A stretch of 64,000 nt of DNA from a virus (IMGVR_UViG_2903468256_000002:16676-80675); one strand, 5' to 3'. Shown: positions 5,286 to 38,672, counted from the first letter of the stretch. The notes: generated from the sequence alone by a model not told the origin. Program-made: numbers and translations.

Positions 5286-7721
5286 TCACTTCATCGCCCC
5301 CACAACTGTGACGAAGTTGTACACGATGTCGGTGCCCCCGTTCCGGATCTCGCGCAGCTGTTCGAACCTGAAGGCGCCGGCCAGCTCCTTCATCAATGCA
5401 TGAAATCGCATCCGTGGCACACGCGCGACACCCCCCGCCATCGTGCAGAAAGCCCAGTATTCGTCGAAAAGGTGATCCCCCATAGTGCGGGTCTTGGAAG
5501 TGCCCTCGTGCTCGCGCTTTCCGACTCTGAGACGAGGGCTCTGTGACAAAAAATATCGCACCGAGTTGTTCTGGTTGGCCATGTCGTCGATCGCAGTCAT
5601 GTGGCTGGTCGGCAACGTGTAGTCCTTGTTGACCTTCAACCGTGACAGGCCCAGGAGCGCCCAGGCGACGATCTGCTCACGCTCGGAGGCGAGAATGATC
5701 TGATCGATGTCGATGATCTTCTTCTCGTCCGAGATCCGCCGCGGGAACTCCAGGAACAACCAGCGGCGATTGAAACCATCGGAGGTATCCTTGGTGCGGG
5801 GAGTGTGGTTCGAAGCGAACCACTGCGCCGCCCTCGGCCGGAACCTGAAGATCGGCTGGTTCTTCATCTGTGCCTCGATCTCGGCGCCCTCGATCACTTG
5901 CTTGAAGACCTCGCCGGAGATGTCGCGCTTTTCCGAGATCTCACCCGCGAAGTTGACCAGCTTGTCGGCCATCTGGGCCGGCATAAACTTGTCACCCCAA
6001 TCGGTCGGCGGAACAGCCGAGTGACACCCGTCCGGCATCAGGCCCTTCAGGATCTCCAGAATTCTCGACTTGCCGCTGTGCGCTTGGCCGATCAGGCAGA
6101 AGGCTCGCTGGTATTTGGGGGCAACACCCATGAGCGTTACCGCAAGAGCCTCCTGCAAAGCCATCACCTTGTCGCCATAGTCGGCGTCTTCTCCCCAGCA
6201 ATCGTCCAGCATCTGGAGGAAAAGCGGGCAGCGGCTGTCTTCCTGGTACCGATAGGGCAGCACGTAGGTGCAGCCGAACTCCGGCGAATGCTTGCGGAGC
6301 TCCAGGTCCTCGGTCAGGAAGCCGTTGGCGAAGTTCACGCCGGTCAGGGAGACAGTCTGGAGGGTCTCGGAGATCAGGCCGGCCATCAGCTTCACGATCT
6401 GCGAGATGTCGGAGTAGCGCCGGCACACGGGCAGGTGGCCATACTCCTCCGACAGGTGCTTGATGAAGTCGTTCTGGTCGACCGTCTGCCAGGACGCGCC
6501 CTTCCACTGCCAGAACTGGCCCTGATGGTGCTTCAGCTTGCCGAACTCCTCCATGTCCTTGATCAGGGCGCGCGCGACCTCGGAGTGGTCGGTGCCCGTG
6601 ATGTCGCCGGCGCGGAGCTTCAGGAGCTCCTTGCGCAGCGTGGTCACGCTGTAGGAGCCCTTCGATGCCGAGACGATGAACTTCAGGATGCGCTCTTCGT
6701 CGAGCGCGCCGATCTCGGAGTTGCGCGCCAAGCGATCGAGCGCCACTTCCACGGCGCGAGTCCAGCCGGCAGTGTCCGGCGTAACGTGACGCTCGAACTC
6801 ACTGACGAGGTGGGCAACGATCTTCTCCGGCTCCCACTGCTCATTCTCGTCGCTGATGACGAGGCCGAGCTTGGTCTTGTCTTCCTCGGTCAACCCGTCG
6901 TCCCAGCCGGTCGGCAGGGCCTTGCGCTTGTCGCCGAGCACGTCGCGCATGAGGAAGTCGACAACCTTGGTCTGCGCCTTCTCGACGGAGACAGGATCAC
7001 CCGCCACCTTCTCGACATAGCCCTCGACCCAGGCCTTCATCTCACCCATGGCCTCGATCAGCGTGCGCTCGCCGCGCGTGACAGCCCGGGCCAGCAGGCC
7101 GGCATTGTAGACCAGCGCGTTGTCGCGCGCACCAGCTGGCACGAACGACGTGATCTTGGTGTTGCCCGAGCTCGAGAGCTCGAAGCCCTCGGCCTTCAGC
7201 GCCTCGCGGAGCAGGCCTTCGACACCCTTCGGGAGCGCCGGGAGCGCGCCGATGACGTCGATCAGCTCGACGTTGGAGCTGTAGGGCTTGCCCGTGTCCG
7301 GGTGGATTGACGGAGGGAGCACGATCTGGGTGCCCTTGGACAGGCATTCCAGCAGCATTTCACCCTTCGAGTCCTTGACGCGGAAAGTGCGCTCGCCCTC
7401 GAAGCGATAGGCGTAGACCGCACCCTTGCGGCCGACACGCCGCCACGGCGAGGCCGGCAGGAGCTGCTCTATGATGCGCTGGACACGCGGGTCGTCGCTG
7501 TCGACGTCGATCGCCACCACGCCGGACGCGGCGCCCATGGGCAGACCGATGTTGCCGTCACCCTTCTGGCCCAGCCACTCACGCTGTTCGCGCTCGGTGG
7601 GCATACGGTCGGCGAAAACCTGCCACGCATCGATCCAGGGGCGCTTGAAACCGACCCGCAACGGGATCGCAGGCTTGCCGAGGGCCCAATATTTCGGTGC
7701 TTCAGAGGCAAAAATACCCAT
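5286..7721 (-). CDS. Bifunctional primase-polymerase / SF3 (D5-like) helicase
   Basis: N-terminal Prim-Pol motifs (IPL...KRP, GNIGLPMG, VAIDVD); Walker A GQAHSGKS; FASNH motif C. Confidence 0.9.
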   Translation of the reverse strand: MGIFASEAPKYWALGKPAIPLRVGFKRPWIDAWQVFADRMPTEREQREWLGQKGDGNIGLPMGAASGVVAIDVDSDDPRVQRIIEQLLPASPWRRVGRKGAVYAYRFEGERTFRVKDSKGEMLLECLSKGTQIVLPPSIHPDTGKPYSSNVELIDVIGALPALPKGVEGLLREALKAEGFELSSSGNTKITSFVPAGARDNALVYNAGLLARAVTRGERTLIEAMGEMKAWVEGYVEKVAGDPVSVEKAQTKVVDFLMRDVLGDKRKALPTGWDDGLTEEDKTKLGLVISDENEQWEPEKIVAHLVSEFERHVTPDTAGWTRAVEVALDRLARNSEIGALDEERILKFIVSASKGSYSVTTLRKELLKLRAGDITGTDHSEVARALIKDMEEFGKLKHHQGQFWQWKGASWQTVDQNDFIKHLSEEYGHLPVCRRYSDISQIVKLMAGLISETLQTVSLTGVNFANGFLTEDLELRKHSPEFGCTYVLPYRYQEDSRCPLFLQMLDDCWGEDADYGDKVMALQEALAVTLMGVAPKYQRAFCLIGQAHSGKSRILEILKGLMPDGCHSAVPPTDWGDKFMPAQMADKLVNFAGEISEKRDISGEVFKQVIEGAEIEAQMKNQPIFRFRPRAAQWFASNHTPRTKDTSDGFNRRWLFLEFPRRISDEKKIIDIDQIILASEREQIVAWALLGLSRLKVNKDYTLPTSHMTAIDDMANQNNSVRYFLSQSPRLRVGKREHEGTSKTRTMGDHLFDEYWAFCTMAGGVARVPRMRFHALMKELAGAFRFEQLREIRNGGTDIVYNFVTVVGAMK

Positions 7722-8862: not shown

Positions 8863-10601
8863 GCCTGTACGCCGATTTCCTCACCCGGCTCCAACAAAAA
8901 TTCCCCGAGGACGGGGCAGAGATGTCTATGTCGGACTTCATCTGCGCGAACACCAGCCTCCGGAAGAAGCAGTTCTCGTTCAAGGGTTATGAGTTCCAGC
9001 GTCAGATAGTGGACGACCTACACCTCAACCTGTCGGTCATCAAGTGTTCGCAGGTGGGTCTGACCGAGGTCCAGATCCGAAAGTTCCTCAGCTTCCTCAA
9101 GCGCACCAACGGCATCAACGGCATCTTCTCTCTGCCGAACGATGACATGTACAAGCGCGTCTCAAAAACGCGCATCAAGCCGCTCGTCGATGACGAGCTT
9201 GTGTTCAACCAACACGATGCGTCGAAGAAACCAGCCCGGTCGATGGACCTATACCAGATCGATGACAGCTTCGGTTTCATCACCGGCGGCAAGGAAGGTG
9301 ACGCCACCTCGATCAACGCTGACATCATGTTCAACGACGAGGTCGATTTAACCGACCAGGAGATCCTTGCGCTCTACGGCTCCCGCTTGCAGGGCTCCGA
9401 CATCAAGATGCGTCAGGGCTTCTCGACTCCGACCTTTGAGGGCTACGGCATCGACAGCATGTACAAGGCGTCGGACCAGCACGAATTCCTGTGCCGGTGC
9501 GGCTGCGGCCACTGGAACCTGCCGGTCTTCAGCCCGCGTTTCGTCAGGATCCCTGGTCTCTCTGCGGATCTGAACGATCTCTCCGAAATCGACAACGATA
9601 TGGCCGCGAAGTTCGATTTCGATGACGCGTACATGATGTGCGAGCACTGTGGCCGGCGCCTCGATCTCGGTGACCCCGATCGGCGCGAGTGGGTGCCTCG
9701 ACACCCCGGCCGGCTCGGCCGCGGCTACTGGGTTCGACCCTTCGCCACACCCCGCCTGAGCGTCCGATACATCGTCGAGCAGCTGCTCGACTACAAGCGC
9801 AAGAACTCAATCCGCCGCTGGTACAACACTGTGCTCGGCGAACCCTACAACGACGCGAATGCCCGCCTCTCCATCCCGGAGATCGAGGCCGTCATGAAAG
9901 GCGAGGGAGCCGTAGATGTACCCGATGGATCTCCAGTGGCTGTGGGTGTGGACGTCGGTCAGACCTGTCATGTTGTCGTGGCTCATCTGGGACTATCGGT
10001 ACCGGTTGTTTTTGAATGGCTGCAAGTTCCCTCCGACCAACTGAAAGAGAAGCTGGCCGAGCTGCGCACGCGATACCACGTCGTCGCCGGGGGCATGGAT
10101 CTTAACCCCTACGCCCCGCTCGCCAGGGAGATCCGAGACGACTCCAAGGGCATCATCATGCCCATTGAATATTCGACGAGCCTCAAGGCGGCGGCAGTGA
10201 CCCTCGTCAAGGACGAGATGGACAACATCACCCATGCTTCGTCTAACCGCACCGGCATCATCGACAAGATCGTAGGTGAGATCCGCGCCCGCCGCCTGGC
10301 GTTCGCCGGGTATGGCAACAAGAAGCTGATCATCCAGACGCACCTTCAAGACATGGTGCGCGTCGAGCTGCCCGAACAGCCCGCGAAATGGGTCAAGCTG
10401 ACCGGCGACGACCACTTCTTCCACGCGCTCGGCTATCTTCTGCACTCGCTGCGGGTCCACGACTATATCGCCAGCCAGGACGAACAAGAGGAACGCCAAA
10501 TGGCTATGCTCTTCGGTTTGAGCCCAACTGTGCAGCAGAATGAGGCATCACTTAATTACAGAACAAGGATCAAGACCCCATCTGTCCTGGGACTTGCATA
10601 A
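8859..10601 (+). CDS. Terminase large subunit, lambda GpA-like
   Basis: KCSQVGLTE, FNDEVD, STPT, Cys cluster CRCGCG...CEHCG, YNTVLGEPY, nuclease GVDVG; TTG start overlaps the HNH stop. Confidence 0.9.
   Translation: MSLYADFLTRLQQKFPEDGAEMSMSDFICANTSLRKKQFSFKGYEFQRQIVDDLHLNLSVIKCSQVGLTEVQIRKFLSFLKRTNGINGIFSLPNDDMYKRVSKTRIKPLVDDELVFNQHDASKKPARSMDLYQIDDSFGFITGGKEGDATSINADIMFNDEVDLTDQEILALYGSRLQGSDIKMRQGFSTPTFEGYGIDSMYKASDQHEFLCRCGCGHWNLPVFSPRFVRIPGLSADLNDLSEIDNDMAAKFDFDDAYMMCEHCGRRLDLGDPDRREWVPRHPGRLGRGYWVRPFATPRLSVRYIVEQLLDYKRKNSIRRWYNTVLGEPYNDANARLSIPEIEAVMKGEGAVDVPDGSPVAVGVDVGQTCHVVVAHLGLSVPVVFEWLQVPSDQLKEKLAELRTRYHVVAGGMDLNPYAPLAREIRDDSKGIIMPIEYSTSLKAAAVTLVKDEMDNITHASSNRTGIIDKIVGEIRARRLAFAGYGNKKLIIQTHLQDMVRVELPEQPAKWVKLTGDDHFFHALGYLLHSLRVHDYIASQDEQEERQMAMLFGLSPTVQQNEASLNYRTRIKTPSVLGLA
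10528..10537 (-). promoter_or_regulatory. Motif B site (TGCTGCACAG) upstream of portal
   Basis: CTGTGCAGCA on the + strand in the 3-prime end of TerL, ~75 nt before the portal start. Confidence 0.45.
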
Positions 10602-10610
10602 GGACACGCT

Positions 10611-12056
10611 GTGGCGGCTTTTGATTTTCTCAGCGCAATCATCCCTGCGAAAAAGAAGGCCAAAGTTGGTGGCACCGCTTCCACGCCTACTTTCAACCCG
10701 CAGCAGGTAGACCGCGTCCTCACGGTCCCGCAGTACCGGGATCACCTGACGGATCTGTTCACCTCCAGGCAGTCGGATGATAGCCGGACCCTTCTGCAAT
10801 CCCTGTTCAAGTTCGATCCGGACGTCTCGGCCGCGCTGAACGCCTATCTCACGATGGCGAACACCGACTGGATCATGCTTGCGCGCGATCTTGAGGGCAA
10901 CATCGACCGGGATGCGACCAAGAGCCTGATGCTGGCGATCGAGAAGATCGGCCGGCCCACCGATTACACGCTCGGCTTCCAGCTGAAGAAGAGCATGCGC
11001 TCGATCGCCGAGGAGCTGCGCTACATGTGCCTGCTCCGCGGCGGCATCGCCGCCGAGCTGATCGTCGACAAGCAGATGCTGCCCGACCGCATTCGCAACG
11101 TCGATCTGGCCACCATCCAGTGGTACGAAAAGAAGGCGGGCGATTACAAGCCGATCCAGAAGATCACGGGCTCGAACGACGAGATCAACCTCGACATCCC
11201 CACCTTCTTCGTATCACACTACCGCAAGGACCCGACCTCGATCTACGGCACCTCGACGTTCGTGTCGTCGATCAACACGATCGCTGCCCGTCAGCAGGTG
11301 ATCAACGACCTCTACCGCATCATGCGCCTCACGGGCTTCCCCCGGATGGCTGTCGAGGTGGTCGAGGAAGTCCTGACCAAGAACGCACCCGAGAGCATCC
11401 GCTCGGACGACGTCAAGCTGCGTGAGTGGAAGGCCAATCGGCTGGGCGAAATTCGTTCGGTGATCGAGGGGCTCCGCTCCGATCAGCCGCTGATCCACTT
11501 CGACAGCGTGCAGCCGTCGATCATGAACGATACCAAGCCTGGCGCCGGCGTCGACATCACGGCGGTGATCGAGACGCTCAACGCCCAGAACCAGGCTGCG
11601 TTGAAGACCATGGCGACCGTCATCGGCCGCGGTGCCTCGGGCGTCAACACGGGCTCCGTCGAGGCGCGCATCGCTGCCATGAACGCCGACGAGCTCAACG
11701 AGCCGATCGCCGAGCTCCTGCAGAACATTTTCTCCTTCATCCTGCATCAGACCGGCTTTCAGGGCTTCGTCGAAGTGCAGTTCCGCAAGGCCGAGCTGCG
11801 TCCCGATACGGAACTCGAGCCGCAGCTCATGCTCAAATCCAGCCGTCTGCGCCAGGATCTGTCGGACGGTCTCATCACCGACGACGAATATCACCTGTGG
11901 ATGTACGGACGACTCCGGCCCGACACCTCCCCCGAGGTAAGCGGCACCGGCTTCATGACCCCTGTCAAAACCAAGGCCGAGGAGGTCAGCCCCAACTCCG
12001 ACCCCCTCGGCCGCTCCCTCGCGCCAGAGGGCGGCAAAGCGGCGAGGAGCAACTAG
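10611..12056 (+). CDS. Portal protein
   Basis: 481 aa directly after TerL, mostly helical, size and synteny. Confidence 0.8.
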   Translation: MAAFDFLSAIIPAKKKAKVGGTASTPTFNPQQVDRVLTVPQYRDHLTDLFTSRQSDDSRTLLQSLFKFDPDVSAALNAYLTMANTDWIMLARDLEGNIDRDATKSLMLAIEKIGRPTDYTLGFQLKKSMRSIAEELRYMCLLRGGIAAELIVDKQMLPDRIRNVDLATIQWYEKKAGDYKPIQKITGSNDEINLDIPTFFVSHYRKDPTSIYGTSTFVSSINTIAARQQVINDLYRIMRLTGFPRMAVEVVEEVLTKNAPESIRSDDVKLREWKANRLGEIRSVIEGLRSDQPLIHFDSVQPSIMNDTKPGAGVDITAVIETLNAQNQAALKTMATVIGRGASGVNTGSVEARIAAMNADELNEPIAELLQNIFSFILHQTGFQGFVEVQFRKAELRPDTELEPQLMLKSSRLRQDLSDGLITDDEYHLWMYGRLRPDTSPEVSGTGFMTPVKTKAEEVSPNSDPLGRSLAPEGGKAARSN

Positions 12057-12058
12057 CC

Positions 12059-12403
12059 ATGGCCCAGAACTTCCGCGGCAAGATCATTGAGGCCGGCTAT
12101 CCCTGGAGCATCCGGATCCAATTCACCAACTCGATAAATTTCCCAGTTGAGGCCACCTTCACCTCGCAGGTGCGTGAGAAACCAGAGTCGGCCCTGCCGA
12201 TCATCGAGTTGACCACTGCCAACGGTGGCGTCGTCCGGCTTGATAGCGTGACGCTGGAGATACACATCCCGGAGACAAGCCCAGGTATCTGGCCGGTCGG
12301 GAAGACCGTCGTGCTCGACGTCATACGCACCGATGGCACGCAGAACGAACATCTCGGGATCCTTCTGCAGGTCCCAGTCCGAAATCCCGTGACTAGGCTG
12401 TAA
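12059..12403 (+). CDS. Small beta-rich virion adaptor protein (BppU N-domain-like)
   Basis: Start MAQNFR just after the portal stop; FTSQVREKPES...IELTTANGGV pattern typical of fibre-anchoring proteins. Confidence 0.55.
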   Translation: MAQNFRGKIIEAGYPWSIRIQFTNSINFPVEATFTSQVREKPESALPIIELTTANGGVVRLDSVTLEIHIPETSPGIWPVGKTVVLDVIRTDGTQNEHLGILLQVPVRNPVTRL

Positions 12404-12404
12404 C

Positions 12405-14654
12405 ATGGTAGACATGATCACAATCGAAGACGCAAGTGACGAATTGCTCCTCTTCGGCGGTCAACTTGGTGACAACATCCTCAAGATTGAGGCTATTGGC
12501 CCCAAGGGCGACGATGGCGACAAGGGCGACAAGGGCGACACCGGTAAGCAGTTGATATATGTAACTGGAGCCCCGGCGACCAACGTTGGTAATGTCGGCG
12601 ACTTTGCCATCAGAAACACCGGGGATGTCTACGAAAAAACGGCGGCAAATGTCTGGACGCTGCGCTTCAATATAAAGGGTCCGCAGGGCGACCAAGGCAT
12701 CCCTGGCCCTGGGGACATGAACGCAGCTGAATACGACAGCAACAACGACGGCAAGGTCAACGCGGCGGATGTCGCTGATAGCGCGCCGTGGGACGGTATC
12801 ACGGACAAGCCGGCAGCGTTCCCGCCGGAGACCCACATCCACGCTGACGCGACCGAGACCGACCCCGGCTTCATGTCGGCCGCCGACAAGACAAAGCTCG
12901 ACGGCGTCAGTGCTGGCGCCACGGCAAACGCGACCGATGCCGAGCTGCGCGACCGCTCGACGCACACGGGCACCCAGAGCGCGGATACCCTGACCGATGG
13001 CGCCACCAACAAGGCATTCTTGGCCGCCGAGCGCACGAAGCTGGCAGGTATCGCCGCCGGTGCAACGGCCAATCAGACCGACGCCTATCTGCTTTCGCGC
13101 GCCAATCATACGGGAACGCAGGGGCAGAACACCGTAACCAATCTCACGACCGATCTCGCCGCCAGGCAGCTGACCTCCGAAAAGGGCCAGGCCGGCGGTT
13201 ATGCCGGTCTCGACGGCACCGGCAAGGTTCCGGCCGCGCAGATGCCGTCCTATGTCGACGATGTGCTTGAATACGCAAACCTTGCTGCCTTCCCTGGCAC
13301 TGGCGAAGCGGCCAAGATCTATGTGGCGCTCGACACCAATAAGACCCATCGCTGGTCGGGATCGGCCTATGTCGAGATCTCCGCATCGCCCGGTTCCACG
13401 GACGCGGTGACGGAAGGCGCTACCAATCTGTATTTCACGGCGGCCCGTGTTCGCTCTACGCTGCTGACCAGCCTCTCGCTGCTGACGAGCACCGCGGTCA
13501 TCGCCACCGACACGGTGCTCGATGCGATTGGCAAGCTTCAGGCTCAGATCACCGGCCTGGTGGCCTCTGCTATTGGCTTCACGCCGGCAAATGGAATTGG
13601 TTCGACCAATGTGCAGGCCGCCATCGCCGAGATCGCACGCAATAACCGCAACTATCTGATCAACAGCAACGGTGCGATCAACCAGCGCGGTGTTATATCG
13701 GCGAACGATGATACCTACGCCTGGGACCGGCATTACGTTCTGACCCAAACGGGAGCGGTTGGAACTGGCTTTATAGTCGATCCGACCCCTGGCGTTCTGT
13801 GCATGATGCGCCAAACACAAGCACAGGTAGCCGCGCAACGCATGGGCATTGCCCAGATTGTCGAAAGCATCAATTGCCGAGATCTGCAAAGCAGCGTCGT
13901 CACGCTGCTGGGCAAGCTGCGTTGTTCCTCGTCGCAGGCAATTCGATATGCGGTCCTTGAATGGACCGGAGCTCGTGACGTTGTGACCTCCGATGTCGTG
14001 AATTCCTGGACAAACGGCACCTTCACCGCCGGTCAGTTCTTCACCTCGACCACGCTCAACGTGCTTGCAGTTGGCTCGACTACGCCTACCGTGGCGACCG
14101 TTACGGACTTCGCTCTTCAGGCGACTGTTGGAGCGTCCGCCAACAACCTGATCGTGATGATCTGGACCGAAGGCACGGCAGCGCAGGGCGTAACGCTCGA
14201 CGTAGCCTGGGAGCTGGTCGACGGCACTCGGGATGCTTCTGCCTATCCGCTTGATCAGCGAACCATCCAAGACGAAGTAACGCTCTGTCAGCGTTACTAT
14301 TGCAAAAGTTTTCCCCTTAATACAGCTCCAGTCGAAGGAGTTGCCTCATCGTGGATCGCAGGATTTGCGTGGTCAGCAGCAGCCATCGGGACGCAGACAA
14401 TTAGTTTTCCTGTATCGATGATCGGCATTCCGACAATAACCTTTTTTAAGCCAGCTCAGATCACCGGAACAAACAGCAAGTGGCAATGGTTCGATAGCGG
14501 ACTGGGCAGCTACCAAGACAGTTCCGCGACGATTGTTTCCAGTGGCGCAATACAAAGTAACGCCAGCTTTTCTGCCAACCTTACGGTGGCGGGTGCGACG
14601 GCGAAAGGCGGCTACATTGTGCAAGGCAATTGGACTGCGGAGGCCGAACTGTGA
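12405..14654 (+). CDS. Long fibre protein with collagen-like segments
   Basis: GPKGDDGDKGDKGDTG and GPQGDQGIPGPG triplets; GATAN.TDA.L..R..HTGTQ repeat twice; TDAVTEGATNLYFT; C-terminal RNYLINSNGAINQRG and LCQRYY fibre motifs. Confidence 0.8.
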   Translation: MVDMITIEDASDELLLFGGQLGDNILKIEAIGPKGDDGDKGDKGDTGKQLIYVTGAPATNVGNVGDFAIRNTGDVYEKTAANVWTLRFNIKGPQGDQGIPGPGDMNAAEYDSNNDGKVNAADVADSAPWDGITDKPAAFPPETHIHADATETDPGFMSAADKTKLDGVSAGATANATDAELRDRSTHTGTQSADTLTDGATNKAFLAAERTKLAGIAAGATANQTDAYLLSRANHTGTQGQNTVTNLTTDLAARQLTSEKGQAGGYAGLDGTGKVPAAQMPSYVDDVLEYANLAAFPGTGEAAKIYVALDTNKTHRWSGSAYVEISASPGSTDAVTEGATNLYFTAARVRSTLLTSLSLLTSTAVIATDTVLDAIGKLQAQITGLVASAIGFTPANGIGSTNVQAAIAEIARNNRNYLINSNGAINQRGVISANDDTYAWDRHYVLTQTGAVGTGFIVDPTPGVLCMMRQTQAQVAAQRMGIAQIVESINCRDLQSSVVTLLGKLRCSSSQAIRYAVLEWTGARDVVTSDVVNSWTNGTFTAGQFFTSTTLNVLAVGSTTPTVATVTDFALQATVGASANNLIVMIWTEGTAAQGVTLDVAWELVDGTRDASAYPLDQRTIQDEVTLCQRYYCKSFPLNTAPVEGVASSWIAGFAWSAAAIGTQTISFPVSMIGIPTITFFKPAQITGTNSKWQWFDSGLGSYQDSSATIVSSGAIQSNASFSANLTVAGATAKGGYIVQGNWTAEAEL

Positions 14655-29667: not shown

Positions 29668-29962
29668 GCGCGTCGGCTTCGTCCTGGTGACCGGCGAGGT
29701 CGTCGAGGTTCAAAACATCTGCGTCCATTCGGACAACGGCTTTGAGGTCTCGGGCACAGACCTGGTCCAGTACCACGATCAGGTGTTCGCCTCCTGGCAC
29801 ACCCACCCGGAACAGAACTCCAACCTGTCGACCAACGACTGGTACGGCTTCCGCAATTATCCAGACTGGTTGCACCTCATCATCGGGACGGACGGCGTGA
29901 GCTCGTACCGGGTCGATAAGGGTCGCGTCCTCGCCGATCAGAAATGGGAAAATGAAGGTTAA
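29612..29962 (+). CDS. JAB/MPN-domain tail protein (gpK N-half-like)
   Basis: ERVGFV...WHTHP...LS.ND JAMM motif. Confidence 0.8.
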   Translation: MNFELPIQELKTKLTDGPERVGFVLVTGEVVEVQNICVHSDNGFEVSGTDLVQYHDQVFASWHTHPEQNSNLSTNDWYGFRNYPDWLHLIIGTDGVSSYRVDKGRVLADQKWENEG

Positions 29963-30479
29963 GGTATTCCTCCACGGATACTTCTCAAAGTTCCATGAAG
30001 GCCCGATCGAGGTCGAAGCCAGCACTGTCTCCGAAGCCGTCTCCCTTCTAACCCGTCAGCTCCCGGGCTTCCGTCCCAACGCCGTCCGTGGCCGGCACCG
30101 TATCTCCGTCGTGGGCTGTGACAAGGTGGAAGATCTCTACCGGCCGGCCAAGGATGGTGAGATCCACCTGATCCCCCAATTCGCCGGCGGTAAGAAGGGT
30201 GGCTTCCTCCAGATCCTTCTCGGTGTCGCGCTCGTCGCGGTTGGCTGGTTTGCCGGCGTTGGCTGGCTCCTCCAGGCCGGCGCGCTGGTCTTCCTTGGTG
30301 GTGTCGCCCAGTTGCTGATGCCCACGCCTGATAGCGAGGACAATCAGAAGAAGTCCCGCTACCTCGGCGCCTCACAAAACACGGTCCAGATCGGAACACG
30401 TATCCCCATCCTGTACGGCGAAGACCTCGTCGGCGGGCATTACCTCTCGTTCGACACCGACGCAATCGTAACAGGATAA
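29952..30479 (+). CDS. Tail assembly protein (lambda gpI-like)
   Basis: Ubiquitin-like N-terminus, IHLIPQFAGG, hydrophobic hairpin, NTVQIGTRIPILYGE. Confidence 0.85.
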   Translation: MKVKVFLHGYFSKFHEGPIEVEASTVSEAVSLLTRQLPGFRPNAVRGRHRISVVGCDKVEDLYRPAKDGEIHLIPQFAGGKKGGFLQILLGVALVAVGWFAGVGWLLQAGALVFLGGVAQLLMPTPDSEDNQKKSRYLGASQNTVQIGTRIPILYGEDLVGGHYLSFDTDAIVTG

Positions 30480-30485
30480 CCACGC

Positions 30486-31514
30486 ATGCGACCAAACCAA
30501 GAGAAGATGATCGAAGCGTTCAGCAAGGCAGGCGGGTTCCGTCCAGCCGAGCGAATGCTGCGCAGCATGGGCTTCGACATCTCCGAGCGGACGCTACGGC
30601 GCGCGCTGGCCAACATGCCTTCAGCGACCGACGAGCCCTTCACGGTTGACGACGGCCCCGAGATCGACATCCAGGAACTGCTGGAGCGCCGGATAAAGGT
30701 CTTCGAGAAGAAGAACAAGCAGCGCGAGCACGACAAGCTGATCCCGGTCAGGATCAACATCGACGGCCCGGTCGGTCTCGGCTTCATGGGTGACCCACAC
30801 ATCGACAGCGACGGCTGCAACATCAAGCTGCTGCTCGAACACACCGAGATCTTCGACGGTCGCAACGAGGGCATGTTCGGCGCCTGTCTGGGCGACATGT
30901 GGAACAACTGGTCCGGCCGCCTCGCGCGCCTGTGGTCTGAGCAAACCACCGATGGCTCCGAAGCCCGCGCGCTGGTCGAATATTTCCTGAGCCGCGTTAA
31001 CTGGATGTTCGTGATCTATGGCAACCACGACCTGTGGTCTGGTCACTCGAAGATCCTCGACCAGATGCTGGCCGGCAACGCGGGCGCTGCCCGTGACTGG
31101 CGCGCACGCGTTGGCCTCCGGTTCCCCAATGGCCGCACGGCGAAGATATACGGCGCGCACGGCTTCCCCGGCAATTCGATGTACCTGAAGAACTTCGGCG
31201 CCGTGAAAAAGGCTCTCTTCGACGGCCAGCACGACATCTACGTCTCAGGCCACATCCATTCGGCCGGCTACACGCTTGGCGCGCACCCGGGCGCCGAACG
31301 CGCCTTCCACGCGGTCCAGGTCGGCACCTACAAGGAGATCGACAGCTTCGGCGATGCGATCGGTGCGGAGAACCTCAATCTCTACACCTGTCCGGTCGCG
31401 CTGATCGACCCGTATGCCACGTCGCCCCTCAATTTCATCCGCTGGGAGTTCGATCCCGAGCAGGCAGTCGATCGTCTCGCGTGGATGCGGAAGCGTTGGT
31501 CTGAGGCTCGGTAA
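30486..31514 (+). CDS. Calcineurin-like metallophosphoesterase with N-terminal HTH-like segment
   Basis: GDPH, GD.WNN, GNHD, H, GHIH metal motifs; N-terminal SERTLRRAL. Confidence 0.8.
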   Translation: MRPNQEKMIEAFSKAGGFRPAERMLRSMGFDISERTLRRALANMPSATDEPFTVDDGPEIDIQELLERRIKVFEKKNKQREHDKLIPVRINIDGPVGLGFMGDPHIDSDGCNIKLLLEHTEIFDGRNEGMFGACLGDMWNNWSGRLARLWSEQTTDGSEARALVEYFLSRVNWMFVIYGNHDLWSGHSKILDQMLAGNAGAARDWRARVGLRFPNGRTAKIYGAHGFPGNSMYLKNFGAVKKALFDGQHDIYVSGHIHSAGYTLGAHPGAERAFHAVQVGTYKEIDSFGDAIGAENLNLYTCPVALIDPYATSPLNFIRWEFDPEQAVDRLAWMRKRWSEAR

Positions 31515-34500
31515 TGCAGAAGTTCGCCGGTAGTGGTTTCGGTAGCAGCGGGGGCAGCAATGACCCCGACAGCTATTTCAGCGATGATATCGTTGAATTG
31601 GTGCTGGCCATCTCTGAGGGTCAGATCAAGGGGCTGAAGGACGGCACGGCCAAGAACTTCTACATCGGCGAAACTCCTCTTCTCAACGCCAACGGGGTGT
31701 CGAACTTTTCGGATTTCGAGCTCGACGTAAACGTGGGTTCGCCCCAGGGTGAGCTCATCGTCTTGTCCCTGGGTGGTCAGGCCACCAGCACGACCGTCAG
31801 CAGCTCCCTGGCCCAATTCGTACCGGTCGTGCGTCAGGGCTCCCAAGTCGACATCGACTGGCTCGAGTTGCGTCTGGTCATCAATCAGCTCCTCCGCACG
31901 AATGATGATGGCGTTCGGGCGCGCGAACTTGATCTGCAGATCGAGATCAAGCCCTCCGACAGCAACACCTGGATCAGCCCTGTCCTTTATGCCGAGGTTG
32001 GAACGACGGTCGAGGCGTACGAGAACAGCCTCAAAGTTGTCCATCGCAACGACATCCAATCAGCCGCGATCGCCGGTCGGACGCAGGTCGTGTATAACCA
32101 GGAGGCCGAACCGAACCCGACCTCCGTCGAGCGCGGCCTCGGCGCGGCTTACGGCAATCGCGTGTGGTGGATCGACACCGCCGGCGGTCAGTTCAATCCG
32201 AAGTTCTACTCGGACCAGGAGTTCTTCCTTCCTGACGGTCTTGTGCTGGACACCACGCCAGGCAAGCAGGTAGCCACGTTTGAGGACGCGAACTACATCG
32301 CGCTGGTCGACCCCTACCGGTCGGATATCACGCGCAAGATCTATTTCTGGGCGTCCGGCACGCCTGGCACCGCCCGTTTGGGCGATCTCTGGTACACTCC
32401 GGCCTCCGGTCGCCTCCTGTGGTTCAACGGCGCCGCCTGGGTCGCTACGCTGGCCCCGCAAGGGACGTACGACCCCACCGCTGGCAACAACGTCATCTCC
32501 ACGAACGGCCAGCTCCACATCTTTGAGAAGATCACCTCCAACGCTGTGAAGGAAGTGCGGATCAAGGTCGATCGGATCGGCGTTCCCTACGACATACGGA
32601 TTACCAAGCAGACGACGGACAGCAGCGACCTCGAAGACGATCGCACCGACGTCTCCTGGGAGAGTTTCCAGGAGGTGAAGGCCGAGCCGATGCTGTTCCC
32701 CAATCTGGCGACCGTTCGCCTGAAGGGCCGTGCCAGCGATCAGTTCTCCAGCCTGCCGGAATTCCAGGGTGTCTACGAGGGCCGTCTGATCAAGGTCCCC
32801 TCGAACTACGACCCCGTGACCCGCACCTTCGCCGGCCTTTGGGACGGCACCTGGAAGGTCGCCTACAGCAACAACCCGGCCTTCATCGGTTACGACCTGG
32901 TCGAGAACGACCGGTACGGCATGAGCGCTACCTATCCTGTCACGCTGGAGCCGTTCGACGTCTACGAGGCGGGGGTGTGGTGCGACCGCCGGCTCCCCAC
33001 TGGCAAACCCCAGTTCACCTTCAACAGCCTCATCAAGGAGGCCCAGTCGCCGCGGGAGCTGGCGACCTACGTCTTCGGCGTGTTCGGCGGCCGGTTCTTC
33101 GACGACGGCAATGGCTATGGGCGCCTGCGCATCGACAATGACGCTCCTGCTGTCCACCTGTTCACCAAGGAGAACGTCAAGAGCGGCACCTTCAAATACT
33201 CCTATACGGAGATTGAGAGCCGCATCAACGACTACACGGTCTCCTTCAAGAACCCCGCGCTGTTTTATGCAGAAGACCGGCGCAGGGTTTACGACCAGCC
33301 GGCGATTGACACCTATGGCCGCGCGCCGGATGACTTTGTCGCCGTGGGTTGCAACAGCGCTGACGAGGCGGTCTATCGAGCCACCGTCAAGCTGCTGACC
33401 GACCAGACCGAGGTGGAAACAGTCACCTTCGAAACCGCCCGCGAAGGTCTCTATCTCGAGCCCTACGAAATCATCCTGGTCGCCGACGACACGATGGACG
33501 AGATCATCACCGGCCGTATCGCCGGTACCGATGGTCCCCGCCTCATCTATCTGCGCGACAACGTCTACCTGGAAGACGGTTTCGACTATGAGATCGTCAT
33601 CAACCTGAACCAATTCGAGCTCGCCACGCTCTCGATCGACGTGATGTCCGTTGGCAGGGCCACGAAGATCCTCCAACTGGCCGAGGATCTTCCGCAGGGC
33701 ATCCCGGATCAGGCCGTCTTCTCGATTGGCTCGAACGCCAAACCGTATCGCGTGCTCGCCATTGGAGAGGGCAGCGATGGTGAGGACGGCGAGAACGTCA
33801 CCATCAGTGCGCTTGAGGTGAACCGGACGAAATATGCCGACGCCGCCGATGCCCCTGGAACGGTCGTCATCGACGTTCCGCAATTCCCTACTGACCTCTC
33901 CGCGGTCTCCAACGCGCGCATCACTCCTTGGACCGAGGTCCGCAATGGTCGCCCGGTCCAGAACCTGCGTGTTGAGTGGGACCCCCATCCGAACAAATGG
34001 GTGCGGACATATTCGATCAACTCCCGCTTCAATGACGACCAGTGGCAGTTCAACGGCGAGGTGAAGAACCCACGTTTCGAACTCTTCGACGTCAAGCAGG
34101 GGCGCTACATCTTCTCGATCCAGGCACTCGCCATGACAGGGCAGAAGTCTGTGGTCGCCTACGCAGACATCGACCTGAGCGGCGAGGTCCGCACGGTCGC
34201 CCCAGTCAAGAACCTGACCCTGGTCAACGAGACGGGCGTCGATGGGGCCCTGCATCTCTTCGACGACGTGCATGCCGATCTGCAATGGGAGCCGGGAGAG
34301 AGTGATCCTGCACTCGCCACCTATGGCGTGAAGCTGTTCAGCGACAGCGAGGAGCTTTTGCGATCAGCATCCGTTGGCGTGCCGGAGTTCACCTACACCA
34401 CCGCGATGATGCGGAACGACGGTGGCCACCGTCAGGTGCGGGTGGAGATCACAGCCTACGATTTGTTTGGCAACCACTCGGTGCCCGTCTCGATGCTGAT

Positions 34501-36451
34501 CAAGAACCCAGCCCCGGCGGCGCCCCTGGTCGCGGCCGACCGCGGCTTCGGTTCGGTTTCCTTCTCGTGGCCGATCTCTGGTCTCATTGACTATGTCGGC
34601 GCTCTGGTTTGGATCTCCGACCAGCCTGGGATAGTCCCTACCGCGCTCCCGCCCGACATGGATATCAACAGCAACACAGTGTCGGTGGCCGTAGAGAGCC
34701 AGGGCGTCTGCTACGCGGTGATCGCGCTCTACGACACGATGGGCAAGACCGAGCTGAATTACAGCCAGGAGGTCTTCGCCCAGTCCTACCAGACCGTGGA
34801 TACGGAGCCGCCGGAAACCCCGACAGGGCTTGGACTGTCCTCGCGGATCGAGACGGTCGATGGCGTTGTGCAACGGATGATCCTGACGGCAGGCCTGGGC
34901 GCGGCGGTCGATGATGACTTTGCCTATTTCGATTTCGAGCTCAAGCAGAACAACGGCAACTGGGTCAGCTTCACCTCCAGCACGCCGACGTTCGAATGGA
35001 CCGTGCTCCCCCTGCAAACCTACACGGTTCGTGCCTCGTCGGTCGACCAGTTCGGCAACCGCTCTGGTCATACTGCCGACCAGGCTTTGCTGACGCCTGA
35101 GTGCCCTGAGCTCGCCGACCTGATTAATTCCGGCTTGGGCGAGATCGAGGCGAACAAGATCCGGGTCTTCGGCGACACTATGGTGTCTGACTGGCGCAAC
35201 CCTGGCGATCTGACCACGATCAACGGCGGGGCGGTGGGCACCGGCACGCTCACGGCCGACAAGGGCATCTTCGGCCAGCGCGGACTCCAGGTCGAGGACA
35301 TCATCTTCGATTACAACAGCCCGAGCATCAACAAGGTCTCTTGGACTGCCGGCGTCGTGCGCTACACGGGCGACGACGGGAACACGGCCACGCGCAACAT
35401 CGCAGCCGGCAGTGCCACCTGGACGACCGGCACGCTCTTCATCTGCTACACGAAGGACGCCACGGAGCTCACCGCCACCACCAACCCGCTGGCGGCCTTC
35501 GATCACGACGCAATCGTCGTGGCGACCTACAAGGGCGACAAGGCCCTGGACGGAAGCTATGGGCGCACGATCATCGACGGCGGGCAGCTGAAGACCGGGA
35601 CGGTCATTGCCGACCAGGCACGGCTCAACTCGATCGACAGCGATGCCATCCAGTCGGACGCTGTGAAAGCTCGGCACATCGCCGCGGGCGAGATCACGGC
35701 CGATCACATCCAGGTCGGCACCGGCGGCAACTGGCTCGACAACGCCGATCTTAGCGCCGGTGTGACCAACTGGGTCCTGACTCGCACCGACACAGGCGTA
35801 ACGGGTGCCATTCGCACCGATAGCCTTGCGCCAATCGGTGGCGCTCTGCAGATATACACCGGCGCCGCCGCCGGCGCGGCCGACTATGGATATTACATGG
35901 CGACCGGTGCATCCGGGGCGCTTAGATACTTTCCGGTCATCGCTGGCCAGAAGTATCAGTTCTCGGTCTACACCTACTCTCTCCGAACCCAGAACTTCGG
36001 GATGATCCGCTTCTTAAATGCGGCTGGTGCTGCCCTCTTGGACAGTCCTCTGCCCAAGTTTGGTCCTGATGTTCTGGATCCCGGCTTCAACCTTGGCAAC
36101 TATCATCGTCCGTTTGTCATCGCCACCGCTCCTGCCGGCGCGGTCAAGGCGGTGATAATTATGGGATCGGATCCCAGAAGCTCCGGCACCGACTGCTATT
36201 GCTGGTTCGCGCGCCCGTTCTTTGGCGAGGCCCTTCCCCACCAGACCCAACCGTCGCCATGGAGCGTCGGCGGTGCGACCAAGATCGGCCCCGGCACGAT
36301 CGAGACGGTCTCGCTGGCGGCAATCTCCGCGGTTCTTGGATCTGTCGACATCAGTGACGCCAATATTGGCACACTGCAGGTGGGTAGCGCCAACATCGCC
36401 AATCTCGCCGTCACCTCGACGAAGACGCAGTCCCTCGAGGTGACCAGATGA
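31514..36451 (+). CDS. Central tail / host-specificity protein (lambda gpJ-like)
   Basis: LAISEGQIKGL, YPNLA-like FPNLA, G..IKVPSNYDPVTRT..G.WDGTWK.AYSNNPA, FN3-like repeats, C-terminal I.A..I beta-helix repeats. Confidence 0.9.
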   Translation: MQKFAGSGFGSSGGSNDPDSYFSDDIVELVLAISEGQIKGLKDGTAKNFYIGETPLLNANGVSNFSDFELDVNVGSPQGELIVLSLGGQATSTTVSSSLAQFVPVVRQGSQVDIDWLELRLVINQLLRTNDDGVRARELDLQIEIKPSDSNTWISPVLYAEVGTTVEAYENSLKVVHRNDIQSAAIAGRTQVVYNQEAEPNPTSVERGLGAAYGNRVWWIDTAGGQFNPKFYSDQEFFLPDGLVLDTTPGKQVATFEDANYIALVDPYRSDITRKIYFWASGTPGTARLGDLWYTPASGRLLWFNGAAWVATLAPQGTYDPTAGNNVISTNGQLHIFEKITSNAVKEVRIKVDRIGVPYDIRITKQTTDSSDLEDDRTDVSWESFQEVKAEPMLFPNLATVRLKGRASDQFSSLPEFQGVYEGRLIKVPSNYDPVTRTFAGLWDGTWKVAYSNNPAFIGYDLVENDRYGMSATYPVTLEPFDVYEAGVWCDRRLPTGKPQFTFNSLIKEAQSPRELATYVFGVFGGRFFDDGNGYGRLRIDNDAPAVHLFTKENVKSGTFKYSYTEIESRINDYTVSFKNPALFYAEDRRRVYDQPAIDTYGRAPDDFVAVGCNSADEAVYRATVKLLTDQTEVETVTFETAREGLYLEPYEIILVADDTMDEIITGRIAGTDGPRLIYLRDNVYLEDGFDYEIVINLNQFELATLSIDVMSVGRATKILQLAEDLPQGIPDQAVFSIGSNAKPYRVLAIGEGSDGEDGENVTISALEVNRTKYADAADAPGTVVIDVPQFPTDLSAVSNARITPWTEVRNGRPVQNLRVEWDPHPNKWVRTYSINSRFNDDQWQFNGEVKNPRFELFDVKQGRYIFSIQALAMTGQKSVVAYADIDLSGEVRTVAPVKNLTLVNETGVDGALHLFDDVHADLQWEPGESDPALATYGVKLFSDSEELLRSASVGVPEFTYTTAMMRNDGGHRQVRVEITAYDLFGNHSVPVSMLIKNPAPAAPLVAADRGFGSVSFSWPISGLIDYVGALVWISDQPGIVPTALPPDMDINSNTVSVAVESQGVCYAVIALYDTMGKTELNYSQEVFAQSYQTVDTEPPETPTGLGLSSRIETVDGVVQRMILTAGLGAAVDDDFAYFDFELKQNNGNWVSFTSSTPTFEWTVLPLQTYTVRASSVDQFGNRSGHTADQALLTPECPELADLINSGLGEIEANKIRVFGDTMVSDWRNPGDLTTINGGAVGTGTLTADKGIFGQRGLQVEDIIFDYNSPSINKVSWTAGVVRYTGDDGNTATRNIAAGSATWTTGTLFICYTKDATELTATTNPLAAFDHDAIVVATYKGDKALDGSYGRTIIDGGQLKTGTVIADQARLNSIDSDAIQSDAVKARHIAAGEITADHIQVGTGGNWLDNADLSAGVTNWVLTRTDTGVTGAIRTDSLAPIGGALQIYTGAAAGAADYGYYMATGASGALRYFPVIAGQKYQFSVYTYSLRTQNFGMIRFLNAAGAALLDSPLPKFGPDVLDPGFNLGNYHRPFVIATAPAGAVKAVIIMGSDPRSSGTDCYCWFARPFFGEALPHQTQPSPWSVGGATKIGPGTIETVSLAAISAVLGSVDISDANIGTLQVGSANIANLAVTSTKTQSLEVTR

Positions 36452-37395
36452 CGGCGATCAACGTCTTGGTCGGCTACAGCGAGACGCACCTGTTCGCCGA
36501 CACCGGCCATTATAACCAAGCGACGAAGAAGCTCGACCACCTGGCGCCGAAGGTTTTTCCGCTCCCGAACCATCAAGCCTTGCTGGCATGGTCCGGGCCG
36601 TCCGCGTTCGGGCCTGTGCTGGCGGAACTGTGCCGGGGCTCGCCCGAACCACTCATGATTGCCTTGCCGCGGATGATCGCCGGCCTCGGCATCCTGGCCA
36701 AATTCTCCGCCATCGTGGTCGGCGCCGGCTGGGGCATCGCGGTCGAGGAAGGCGGCAAGGTCCATCACCTTGCTCCTGGTTCCGTGGTCCGATCGATCAC
36801 GGCCGAAAACCAACTCGATCCCAGTGACCTGCGGGGATCTGGCGTCCGCCTCATGGAGGAGCAGCGCCAATCATCGGGCGTGGTGTTCGGCGAGTGTCAA
36901 TACTGGCACCTCACGTCCCAGCAATGCACGATGCAAGTCCTGCATGACTGGCGCGATCGGCCATCGCTAATCAGGGGAGCTTTGTCGACCGCGGCCAAAA
37001 TTGCCAATCTTACGGTAGACAAGCTCAATGTCGCACCCAATGCCGTCACCAAGATTGCCACAGGCACGACAACGATCACCTCGGGCGGTGACGGCAGTTA
37101 CCCCAACATCATCTGGATCATAATCAACTGCGTGTATCACGGCACGCGGGTCGACTCCTCCGGAGTGCTCAATGTTTTCACCAAACGTTCGCCCAGCAAT
37201 GAAGTAGTTGGCGGTAGCTCAAAGGGCTTTAGTGGTAATGGAGATCAGCCGGCGATCGTCAAAGTAAATGCGGTCGATGTAGGTATGGCGGCAAACCAGC
37301 AGTATTCGATTTCTACAAACTTTAACTTTTCCGGATCGAATGCCACTTGCACGATCAACTCGATCACCACCGAACTGTTTTACACGGTGAAGTGA
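36448..37395 (+). CDS. Chimeric tip protein: Ntn-hydrolase-like N-domain plus AKIANL fibre-tip domain
   Basis: MTAI...ADT...KV...A.SG N-terminus; from residue ~183 AKIANLTVDKLNVAPNAVT followed by a beta-rich domain. Confidence 0.6.
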   Translation: MTAINVLVGYSETHLFADTGHYNQATKKLDHLAPKVFPLPNHQALLAWSGPSAFGPVLAELCRGSPEPLMIALPRMIAGLGILAKFSAIVVGAGWGIAVEEGGKVHHLAPGSVVRSITAENQLDPSDLRGSGVRLMEEQRQSSGVVFGECQYWHLTSQQCTMQVLHDWRDRPSLIRGALSTAAKIANLTVDKLNVAPNAVTKIATGTTTITSGGDGSYPNIIWIIINCVYHGTRVDSSGVLNVFTKRSPSNEVVGGSSKGFSGNGDQPAIVKVNAVDVGMAANQQYSISTNFNFSGSNATCTINSITTELFYTVK

Positions 37396-37396
37396 G

Positions 37397-37831
37397 ATGG
37401 CGAAGATCGCAAACCTCGATGTCGATACCATCAAGATCGGCAATGCCGCGCTGACTGGTGCTGGCCAGTCGAGTTTTTCCTATTTCCCGTCGACCGTGAA
37501 TGCATCTATTCCGATATCGAACCCGAGTGGCAACCCGATAACCCTCTATTGGAACGCCAATGGGACATGCGCCAGTGGTGCGTCTTCCAGCCGAGACCGC
37601 ACGGCATCGGTGACTTTTTCCGTCATGCGTGGCGCTACGACGTTCTATAGCAATAGCGTAGTAAGAACGGCCATCGGGGATACTGGTGTGCAGCTGGCAT
37701 GGAGTGGCGCGGTCTACGATCCCACCCCCGGAACATCTCCTGTCTACTCCACAACAGGTGCGGCCGGTTCGACCTCTCCGGGTGTCGCGACTCTGACCGG
37801 AATGCTCATGGCCGTGTATTTCAAGAAGTAG
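37397..37831 (+). CDS. Tail-tip cassette protein B
   Basis: Starts MAKIANLDVDTIKIGNAALT; Ser/Thr/Gly-rich beta domain. Confidence 0.7.
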   Translation: MAKIANLDVDTIKIGNAALTGAGQSSFSYFPSTVNASIPISNPSGNPITLYWNANGTCASGASSSRDRTASVTFSVMRGATTFYSNSVVRTAIGDTGVQLAWSGAVYDPTPGTSPVYSTTGAAGSTSPGVATLTGMLMAVYFKK

Positions 37832-37837
37832 GGGACC

Positions 37838-38173
37838 ATGGCCAAGATCGCCGATCTGAACGTCACCACAATCACCATCAAGGATGGTTCGATCACGCAG
37901 TTCTGCGCGCCCTATAGCGGCGCCCTGGGCACTAACCGCTATATCAACGTGGTCTTCGACGCCTATTCCACGCCAGCGCTGATCTTCGCCAGGACGACGG
38001 CAGGAACAGCAAATCTCTACTACGATCTTGGTGGACCCAACCAGGAGCTGATTTTCTCATTCGTCGACAACAAATGCGGCGTGGTGGGAGACTCCCGTCC
38101 AGCCGGGACGGCGGTCTACGCGCTATCTGGCGGTACGGGGACGATCACTGGTGCGCTCATGAGGTATCGATGA
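37838..38173 (+). CDS. Tail-tip cassette protein C
   Basis: Starts MAKIADLNVTTITIKDGSIT. Confidence 0.7.
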   Translation: MAKIADLNVTTITIKDGSITQFCAPYSGALGTNRYINVVFDAYSTPALIFARTTAGTANLYYDLGGPNQELIFSFVDNKCGVVGDSRPAGTAVYALSGGTGTITGALMRYR

Positions 38174-38430
38174 TGACCTATCGGATCACTTATACAAGCG
38201 GCATCGAAGTCGATGTCGAGGCGTCTCGCATCGAGGACGACGGCATCTCAACCAAACTGTTTCGCGATGACGGCTCGGTGGCGCTTTGGGTCACCGATTG
38301 CGAAATAGTTTGCTGCGCGCCGGTCGGTGATTTTGCACCTGATGTATTCGACGTTGGGGAGACGCAGCAAGGCGTCGTCCTGTTGAACGAAGCCGGTGAG
38401 GTGCTCGCCGCTTACCGAAATTATCAATGA
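38170..38430 (+). CDS. Small acidic protein after tip cassettes (possible chaperone)
   Basis: ATGA overlap, start MMTYRI. Confidence 0.55.
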   Translation: MMTYRITYTSGIEVDVEASRIEDDGISTKLFRDDGSVALWVTDCEIVCCAPVGDFAPDVFDVGETQQGVVLLNEAGEVLAAYRNYQ

Positions 38431-38495
38431 AGAGGAGTTCAAAATGAGCACGATTGCCCTGCAACCTTTGACCCCATTTTTATGTTTCCTTCGAC

Positions 38496-38672
38496 ATGAA
38501 ACGTAACAAGGGTATCATCGCCTACGGCACCGACGAGGACCGCGCCAAGCTCGCGGTTCTCTCCAGCCTGTCAGGCAAAACAGCCTCCGACTGGATTGTC
38601 CAGGAGGTCCGGAAACAATACGCCGCGGCTTTCGGCGAGACACCTCCTGAGCGCATCATAGCGCAGCAGTAG
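38496..38672 (+). CDS. Second RHH-like small DNA-binding protein (58 aa)
   Basis: Not in the ORF track; MKRNKGIIAYGTDEDRAKLAVLSSLSGKTASDWIVQEVRKQY (strand-helix-helix). Confidence 0.6.
   Translation: MKRNKGIIAYGTDEDRAKLAVLSSLSGKTASDWIVQEVRKQYAAAFGETPPERIIAQQ

Follow-up and report, generated by a model that had tools for sequence, protein, structure and literature searches.

How does a lambda-like tail tip carry a receptor-binding head when its central fibre protein ends without one? This question is raised by a 64-kb provirus record from IMG/VR (IMGVR_UViG_2903468256_000002:16676-80675; the whole analysed stretch is called the window here), a Mesorhizobium-type prophage in which five closely packed genes, J, A, B, C and D, lie on the + strand. 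Gene J (31514-36451, +; 1645 aa) encodes a central tail fibre/hub protein that lacks the C-terminal receptor-binding domain (RBD) of lambda gpJ and stops shortly after a peptide motif that recurs in A, B and C. The answer that we favour, with a probability of roughly 0.6, is that the missing head is supplied in trans by the A-D module, likely as a heterotrimer of B, C and the C-terminal domain of A (A') seated on the terminal strands of J.

The assignment of J as a genuine central tail fibre protein was supported by phrog_31 (E 3.4e-124) and by the Pfam families FNIII-A_GpJ and Phage-tail_3. The original prediction described four 17-nt direct repeats in codon phase, with the peptides ANIANLAVT, AKIANLTVD, MAKIANLDVD and MAKIADLNVT, and all four were found where it placed them on the + strand: copy 1 in J (36389-36405, coding for ANIANL), copy 2 in A (36994-37010), copy 3 in B (37400-37416) and copy 4 in C (37841-37857). 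The J stop, which it put about 20 aa past ANIANLAVT, is in fact 11 residues away. Its further statement that J has no terminal receptor domain was correct in that no gpJ-type C-terminal RBD is present; J is not bare, however, as a segment of ~220 aa lies ~60 aa from its end (window ~35606-36283; residues ~1365-1590). The sole lead for this segment came from a language model, as a weak match (score 0.87) to carbohydrate-binding clusters of the CBM_4_9 type; if this match is real, J retains a lateral lectin-like domain of its own. A search of PDB sequences with the J C-terminus gave nothing significant.

The degenerate pattern GCSAAVATYGCMRAYCT, which was derived from the four sites themselves, matched 4 sites in the 64 kb, exactly the repeats, and none in 100 shuffles. 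In a six-frame translation of the window, the peptide expression A[KN]I..L.[VI] likewise occurred in these four places only. The copies were identical at 12-15 of 17 positions, with longest exact runs of 4-8 nt, and the identity was concentrated in codon positions 1 and 2. The short exact runs and this codon-position bias indicate that the DNA repeat is the shadow of a conserved peptide.

The unit that moves is a four-gene module that includes the last 22 codons of J. Alignment by blastn with a locus of Mesorhizobium sp. B2-4-11 (L002) gave a single block of 83.7% identity at window positions 36383-38424 (+), and no DNA similarity was found outside it. This horizontally exchanged block consists of the last 22 J codons (the J-tail; 36383-36448, +; GSANIANLAVTSTKTQSLEVTR), which form the left edge of the module and its proposed docking strands, together with A, B, C and D. 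A contig of a third strain (X3) was similar over 36448-38424 only, and the unlike DNA just upstream still encoded ...HKTQRLEVVQ. A tail of ~20 residues with the consensus LQVG.A.IAN.AITS.K...L.V was found at the end of nine otherwise different tip proteins. These upstream proteins ranged from 645 to 2050 aa and differed in architecture (the J-like protein of 1645 aa in the window, one of 848 aa with a Phage_Tail_Tip match, one of 645 aa with fn3, and others of 873-2050 aa), with the terminal tail in common. The edges of the block and the presence of the tail on unlike tip proteins thus mark the J-end motif as the joint where phages exchange entire modules; judged from the sequences compared, it does not appear to be a site of rearrangement within a phage.

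In a large protein index, B had two relatives only and A had eleven; the named relatives came from Mesorhizobium genomes. A profile search of 1.84 billion representatives gave 610 proteins in three classes: full-length A-like proteins (~315-332 aa), proteins with the N-terminal domain only (~160-240 aa) and B-like proteins with a MAKI start (133-151 aa). Profile scans added one metagenomic locus (L013) and one viral locus (L012). No confirmed relative was obtained from a species-genome scan with the A profile, tblastn of A and a B-like protein against 50,697 phage records gave no match, and A-D had no match in Pfam, PHROGs or NCBIfam. In public annotation, C of L004 (8438-8776) and B of L005 (7954-8379) were uncalled although their open reading frames (ORFs) are intact and have the MAKI start, indicating that automated annotation under-reports the A-D family.

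Gene order was compared in 11 complete loci (the window, L002, L004, L005, L006, L007, L009, L012, L013, L016/L017 and the P0028 contig, the last as a gene table only), with two partial loci (L020 and L021) and X3 in addition. In all 11, the tip protein was followed by the Ntn domain, either fused or as a gene of its own, and then by A', B, C and D, and each of the three lineages A', B and C was represented exactly once. Identities across loci fell to ~25-30%, and both partial loci had the same order over the parts present. The comparison of cassette number and order among relatives, which the original prediction had proposed as a check, therefore gave an invariant A-B-C-D arrangement. The module adjoined J or tail-tip genes in every complete locus, and lysis genes followed downstream in several. 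All module genes had ATG, GTG or TTG starts that overlapped the preceding stop or followed closely behind it; in the window, the ATG of A overlaps the J stop (ATGA), B starts 1 nt past the A stop and C starts 6 nt past the B stop.

The Ntn domain was a separate gene in L016/L017 and in the P0028 contig. In L016 it was followed by three consecutive genes with TGATG overlaps, which start with MAKIGNLEIDTGK, MAKIGNLEIDTGK and MAKVGNLEVTSGK. These split forms indicate that gene A of the window (36448-37395, +; 315 aa) is a fusion of an Ntn domain with A', and that its 'internal' motif marks a domain boundary. The linker and AKI motif of A (residues 177-200; 36976-37047, +; AAKIANLTVDKLNVAPNAVTK) hold repeat copy 2, and K184, I185, L188 and V190 are invariant in the motif.

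In L004 (Mesorhizobium sp. B2-1-2; 9021-12749), the module lies upstream of gene transfer agent (GTA)-like tail genes (Phage_BR0599, Phage-tail_3) and sits after the 645-aa fn3 fibre protein, not after a hub protein, which suggests that the adaptor tail is able to sit on a non-J protein. A distant variant (L018, 964-2561) has one 379-aa gene comprising an Ntn domain, the motif GALSVKSLSIGDNAITV and a beta domain; a tail-fibre chaperone-like gene (weak Phage_tail_APC-like Pfam match) and then a terminase follow, at a different genome position.

We compared A' (residues 201-315 of A; 37048-37392, +), B (37397-37831, +; 144 aa) and C (37838-38173, +; 111 aa) by hhalign, with and without the shared motif. 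A' and B matched with a probability of 99.5% (E 1.8e-22) with the motif and of 97.9-99.4% after it was trimmed. For B and C the values were 98.4% and 54-86%, and for A' and C the match was 96.3% with the motif and not significant without it. The three beta domains, which the original prediction described as different, are therefore not unrelated, and A' and B still match when the motif is removed. A' is a clear paralogue of B by these profiles, and C is probably a smaller, more diverged member of the family. In a tree of 30 sequences, C formed one clade (10 of 10; support 99/99), six A' sequences formed another (99/98) and six B sequences a third (96/91); the most distant loci were not resolved. 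The sequences thus suggest that the triplication is old and that each lineage has been retained in every locus.

The AlphaFold2 (AF2) model of B (pLDDT 85.2) was all-beta from residue 20, with values of 52-68 at the N-terminus; A' was also all-beta (pLDDT 78-94). Residues 177-198 of A, which contain the AKI motif, had pLDDT below 50 in the monomer model and lay between two confident domains. Low confidence in the motif segments is expected of strands that fold only in an oligomer. Foldseek with the B model found Bdellovibrio Bd1399 (E 5.5e-6), A8 gpJ (9wca_F, E 2.4e-5), the lambda gpJ central fibre (8xck_F, E 1.3e-4, TMq 0.63) and TNF-like lectins. Exhaustive structural alignment (VIA) gave lymphotoxin-alpha (Z 9.0, root mean square deviation 2.4 A over 106 residues), TNF (Z 8.8) and C1q domains, and BC2L-C-type lectins were among the fold matches. 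The matches also included heterotrimers of the TNF family (LT-alpha1-beta2) and of C1q (4mxw, 6z6v). The fold also recurred among viral predicted structures, for example in the C1q-like heads of collagen-like proteins and in a 'J central straight fiber' protein. These models indicate that B, with its MAKI motif, is a predicted TNF/C1q-like jelly roll resembling the lambda gpJ RBD; C has the same kind of motif followed by a smaller beta domain. A search of PDB sequences with B gave nothing significant.

The alignment with gpJ places the motif as well as the domain. Residues 2-144 of the B model aligned to gpJ 980-1125 (VIA; Z 7.9, 133 residues). In gpJ, hub domains are followed by FNIII, a helical shaft, a beta-sheet prism (CSF, 808-998) and the RBD (PMC11101478, PMC13455828). 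Read against this order, B would correspond to the last prism strands plus the RBD, with its N-terminal motif on the strands.

The N-terminal domain of A (residues 1-176; 36448-36975, +) was modelled with a proteasome beta-subunit-like Ntn-hydrolase fold (overall pLDDT of A 82.7; N-domain mostly 80-94). Foldseek gave at least 500 PDB matches at E <= 0.001 (best E 1.3e-7; TMt up to 0.72), and among the matches listed all 44 of 44 were 20S proteasome entries. Position 2 was Thr in 30 and Ser in 8 of 38 family members; D18 and G50 were present in all 38 and K35 in 37. Upon removal of Met, Thr2 of A becomes the N-terminus. The conserved residues T/S2, D18, K35 and G50 are the equivalents of the proteasome catalytic residues Thr1, Asp17, Lys33 and Gly47 (PMC8665760), and the conservation of this set argues for Ntn activity. 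The domain is probably catalytically active, acting on a host surface component or in tip maturation. With the family profile, the best match among PDB sequences was HslV, in register from residue 1 (E 1.1), and the PDB sequence search with A itself gave nothing significant. No Pfam match, including Proteasome (PF00227), was obtained for A or the 38 family members, consistent with a very divergent branch of the proteasome family. A J-A fusion by readthrough or frameshifting was also considered and rejected, because A requires a free N-terminal Thr and the ATGA overlap was kept in the loci examined.

The domain probably belongs to the published RPC/PPH group, and is set beside RPC by architecture and taxon only. 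Like RPC and PPH, A lacks a propeptide and has a compact domain of the proteasome type in which Thr/Ser1, Asp17, Lys33 and Gly47 are represented. RPC proteins occur in Proteobacteria and carry a C-terminal extension that matched no known structure, with no tail-tip context given, and their cluster representative is WP_140207863 (PMC8665760, Fuchs et al. 2021); the relatives found here were WP_140686269, WP_140525694 and WP_224556711. PPH proteins occur in phages; the copies in bacteria are surrounded by phage genes, with Mesorhizobium and Pseudoalteromonas as exceptions (PMC8665760). Unlike the published RPC, the extension of A is a strand motif with a beta domain paralogous to B, whose model is TNF-like, and the gene directly follows J.

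We propose that J would form the hub and fibre shaft, with the 22-residue J-tail as a pair of short beta strands at its end. Each of A', B and C opens with a related strand motif (AKIxxLxVxxhxh) and would continue into a jelly-roll domain, and the three would assemble 1:1:1 into a pseudo-threefold head. The beta-prism that starts in the three J-tails would be prolonged by the N-terminal strands of the head chains, and attachment would thus be by non-covalent strand-on-strand stacking. The Ntn domain would hang from A at the junction of J and head. Three paralogous chains on a threefold fibre, one copy of each lineage in every complete locus and tight gene junctions, which suit equimolar synthesis, make the heterotrimer the most economical arrangement. 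The second option of the original prediction, separate chains that extend J, was thereby largely supported: the J-tail travels with A-D behind unrelated tip proteins, B shares the fold of the gpJ RBD with its N-terminal motif on the last prism strands, and the motif is disordered in the monomer models.

Several points weigh against this proposal. The gene set and its order, the joint transfer of J-tail and module, the predicted folds and the paralogy of A' and B are direct results, whereas we infer both the presence of A-D in the virion and their contact with J. TNF-like domains are usually homotrimers, and the distant relative L018 has a single gene of this type. The body of C has no more than a moderate relationship to B and none that was detectable to A', and A' of L016 groups with B (support 95/80), which could reflect recent duplication or gene conversion, not strict orthology. 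The Z-scores of B (8-9) are modestly above the common beta-sandwich background. When the B, C, A' and J-tail profiles were compared by hhalign with lambda J 960-1132, the template being a single sequence, the probabilities were no more than 1%; sequence similarity to lambda J is thus not significant, and the link to gpJ is by fold alone.

It is possible, though rather unlikely, that A', B and C are each homotrimeric and form three receptor-binding knobs on J, for example one per J-tail, or elsewhere on the tail, which would give a single phage several specificities simultaneously. TNF-like domains and gpJ RBDs, whose fold B matches, are normally homotrimeric, the single Ntn-motif-beta-domain gene of L018 is followed by a chaperone-like gene, and in F-type pyocins trimeric side fibres attach to the shaft of the central fibre (PMC13455828). 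Against three independent knobs, the complete loci kept one copy per lineage in fixed order, with no gain, loss or shuffling, whereas few phage genes are usually exchanged as freely as those of independent receptor-binding proteins; three chains that match a threefold fibre, together with tight junctions, favour equimolar co-assembly. We consider it very unlikely that A-D are moron-like cargo genes acting in the lysogen, for example at the cell surface, and are not parts of the virion. Their lack of database matches and their position after J, a known moron site where lambda lom is located, would fit such a role; however, the last 22 J codons are co-transferred with them, the A start overlaps the J stop, B has a fibre-tip fold, and all complete loci have the module after J or tail-tip genes.

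Two other readings would have the motif that J shares with the downstream genes act at the level of DNA or of protein processing. The first option of the original prediction was a host-range switch in which stored tips, here B, C and the distal half of A, fuse in frame to J by recombination at the 17-nt repeats. Four in-phase direct repeats are present, and deletion between copies would preserve the frame. However, exact identity between copies is at most 8 nt, the likeness resides in codon positions 1 and 2, gene number and order are invariant among relatives with each paralogue in its own orthologous lineage, each gene has its own start near or overlapping the preceding stop, and fusion at the A motif would remove a conserved enzyme domain. 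No J-B or J-C fused protein was found among the longer proteins, which is weak evidence. Deletion junctions were sought in three DNA runs from one study, as assembled contigs, which are blind to rare variants; the arrangement was intact, with no junctions seen, both in the strain (two assemblies) and in a relative (one assembly). Known DNA switches that place alternative fibre ends beside a constant part (Mu Gin and P1 Cin inversion, shufflons and diversity-generating retroelements) depend on an enzyme (a recombinase or a reverse transcriptase), on crossover sites that are long and identical, and on cassettes that lack a promoter or a start. None of this applies to the present locus, with its 12-15/17 identical repeats, fixed order and genes with their own starts. 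Stored tips are accordingly an extremely improbable explanation. There is a slim chance that the Thr1 domain is a connectase-like transpeptidase, which would amount to a protein-level 'recombination at a shared motif'. Connectase, which is homologous to the proteasome, joins proteins to one another at a recognition motif that they share (PMC8665760). Such an enzyme might cleave the J-tail and link J covalently either to the Thr1 of the enzyme itself or to the free N-terminal AKI motifs of B, of C and, in the split forms, of A'. The presence of one motif at the end of J and at the start of the downstream chains would then be accounted for, and a heteromeric fibre tip would be constructed post-translationally.

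The last gene of the module, D (38170-38430, +), overlaps the preceding gene by ATGA and encodes a small acidic protein of 86 aa. It was present in every complete locus (53-88 aa), in a short form of ~53-64 aa or a long form of 83-88 aa that seemingly arose by internal duplication, and L012 had two tandem short D-like genes (5705-6027). D may be an assembly factor. The sole sigma-70-like promoter match in the 29.5-40.5 kb region lies just past D (38491-38518) and overlaps the start of a 58-aa ORF (38496-38672, +); this probably marks the end of the tail operon. On the other side of J, a 342-aa calcineurin-like phosphoesterase is encoded at 30486-31514 (+), between tail assembly gene I (29952-30479, phrog_32) and J. 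It matched phrog_7339 'DNA repair exonuclease' (E 1.6e-30) and, weakly, Metallophos families, and the site is unusual for such an enzyme.

We compared the proposed head with known tail tips. In phage T5, a separately encoded receptor-binding protein, pb5, sits on the C-terminal end of the trimeric central fibre pb4; pb5 is a single monomer with a different fold, whereas three paralogous chains are present here. Lambda gpJ (PDB 8XCK, 8XCJ; PMC11101478) likewise is a J-type hub protein with a trimeric fibre. Its RBD is the C-terminus of J itself and hence a homotrimer, whereas here J ends at 36451 and the gpJ-type domain is found in separate genes, so that the head would be encoded by three of them; the two systems share no significant sequence similarity, and the Ntn domain is additional here. 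In the virophage DSLV2 (PMC12724248) and in ORF60-62 of Mycobacterium phage Jabs (bioRxiv 10.64898/2026.07.24.740622), three adjacent related genes have been proposed or shown to form a 1:1:1 receptor-binding trimer. The folds differ, being a gp37-like needle and a lactococcal phage 1358-like sandwich, compared with the predicted TNF/C1q-like fold of B. These trimers attach to the capsid and to the Dit periphery, respectively; the heterotrimer here is something that we infer only. Unlike the present locus, neither shares a motif with the C-terminus of a carrier protein or has an enzyme domain.

If the proposal is right, the receptor-binding head of a lambda-like tip has been split from J, and three diverged genes move as one block with a 22-residue adaptor. 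This would be a natural plug-and-socket boundary for host-range exchange and possibly an asymmetric head on a threefold fibre. The locus also provides a concrete setting, the phage tail tip, for the RPC/PPH proteasome branch, whose function and C-terminal extension have been unexplained. The Ntn domain, with its fixed position between J and head, may degrade surface components, serve as a maturation protease or act as a ligase, in phages whose hosts are plant-symbiotic Mesorhizobium.

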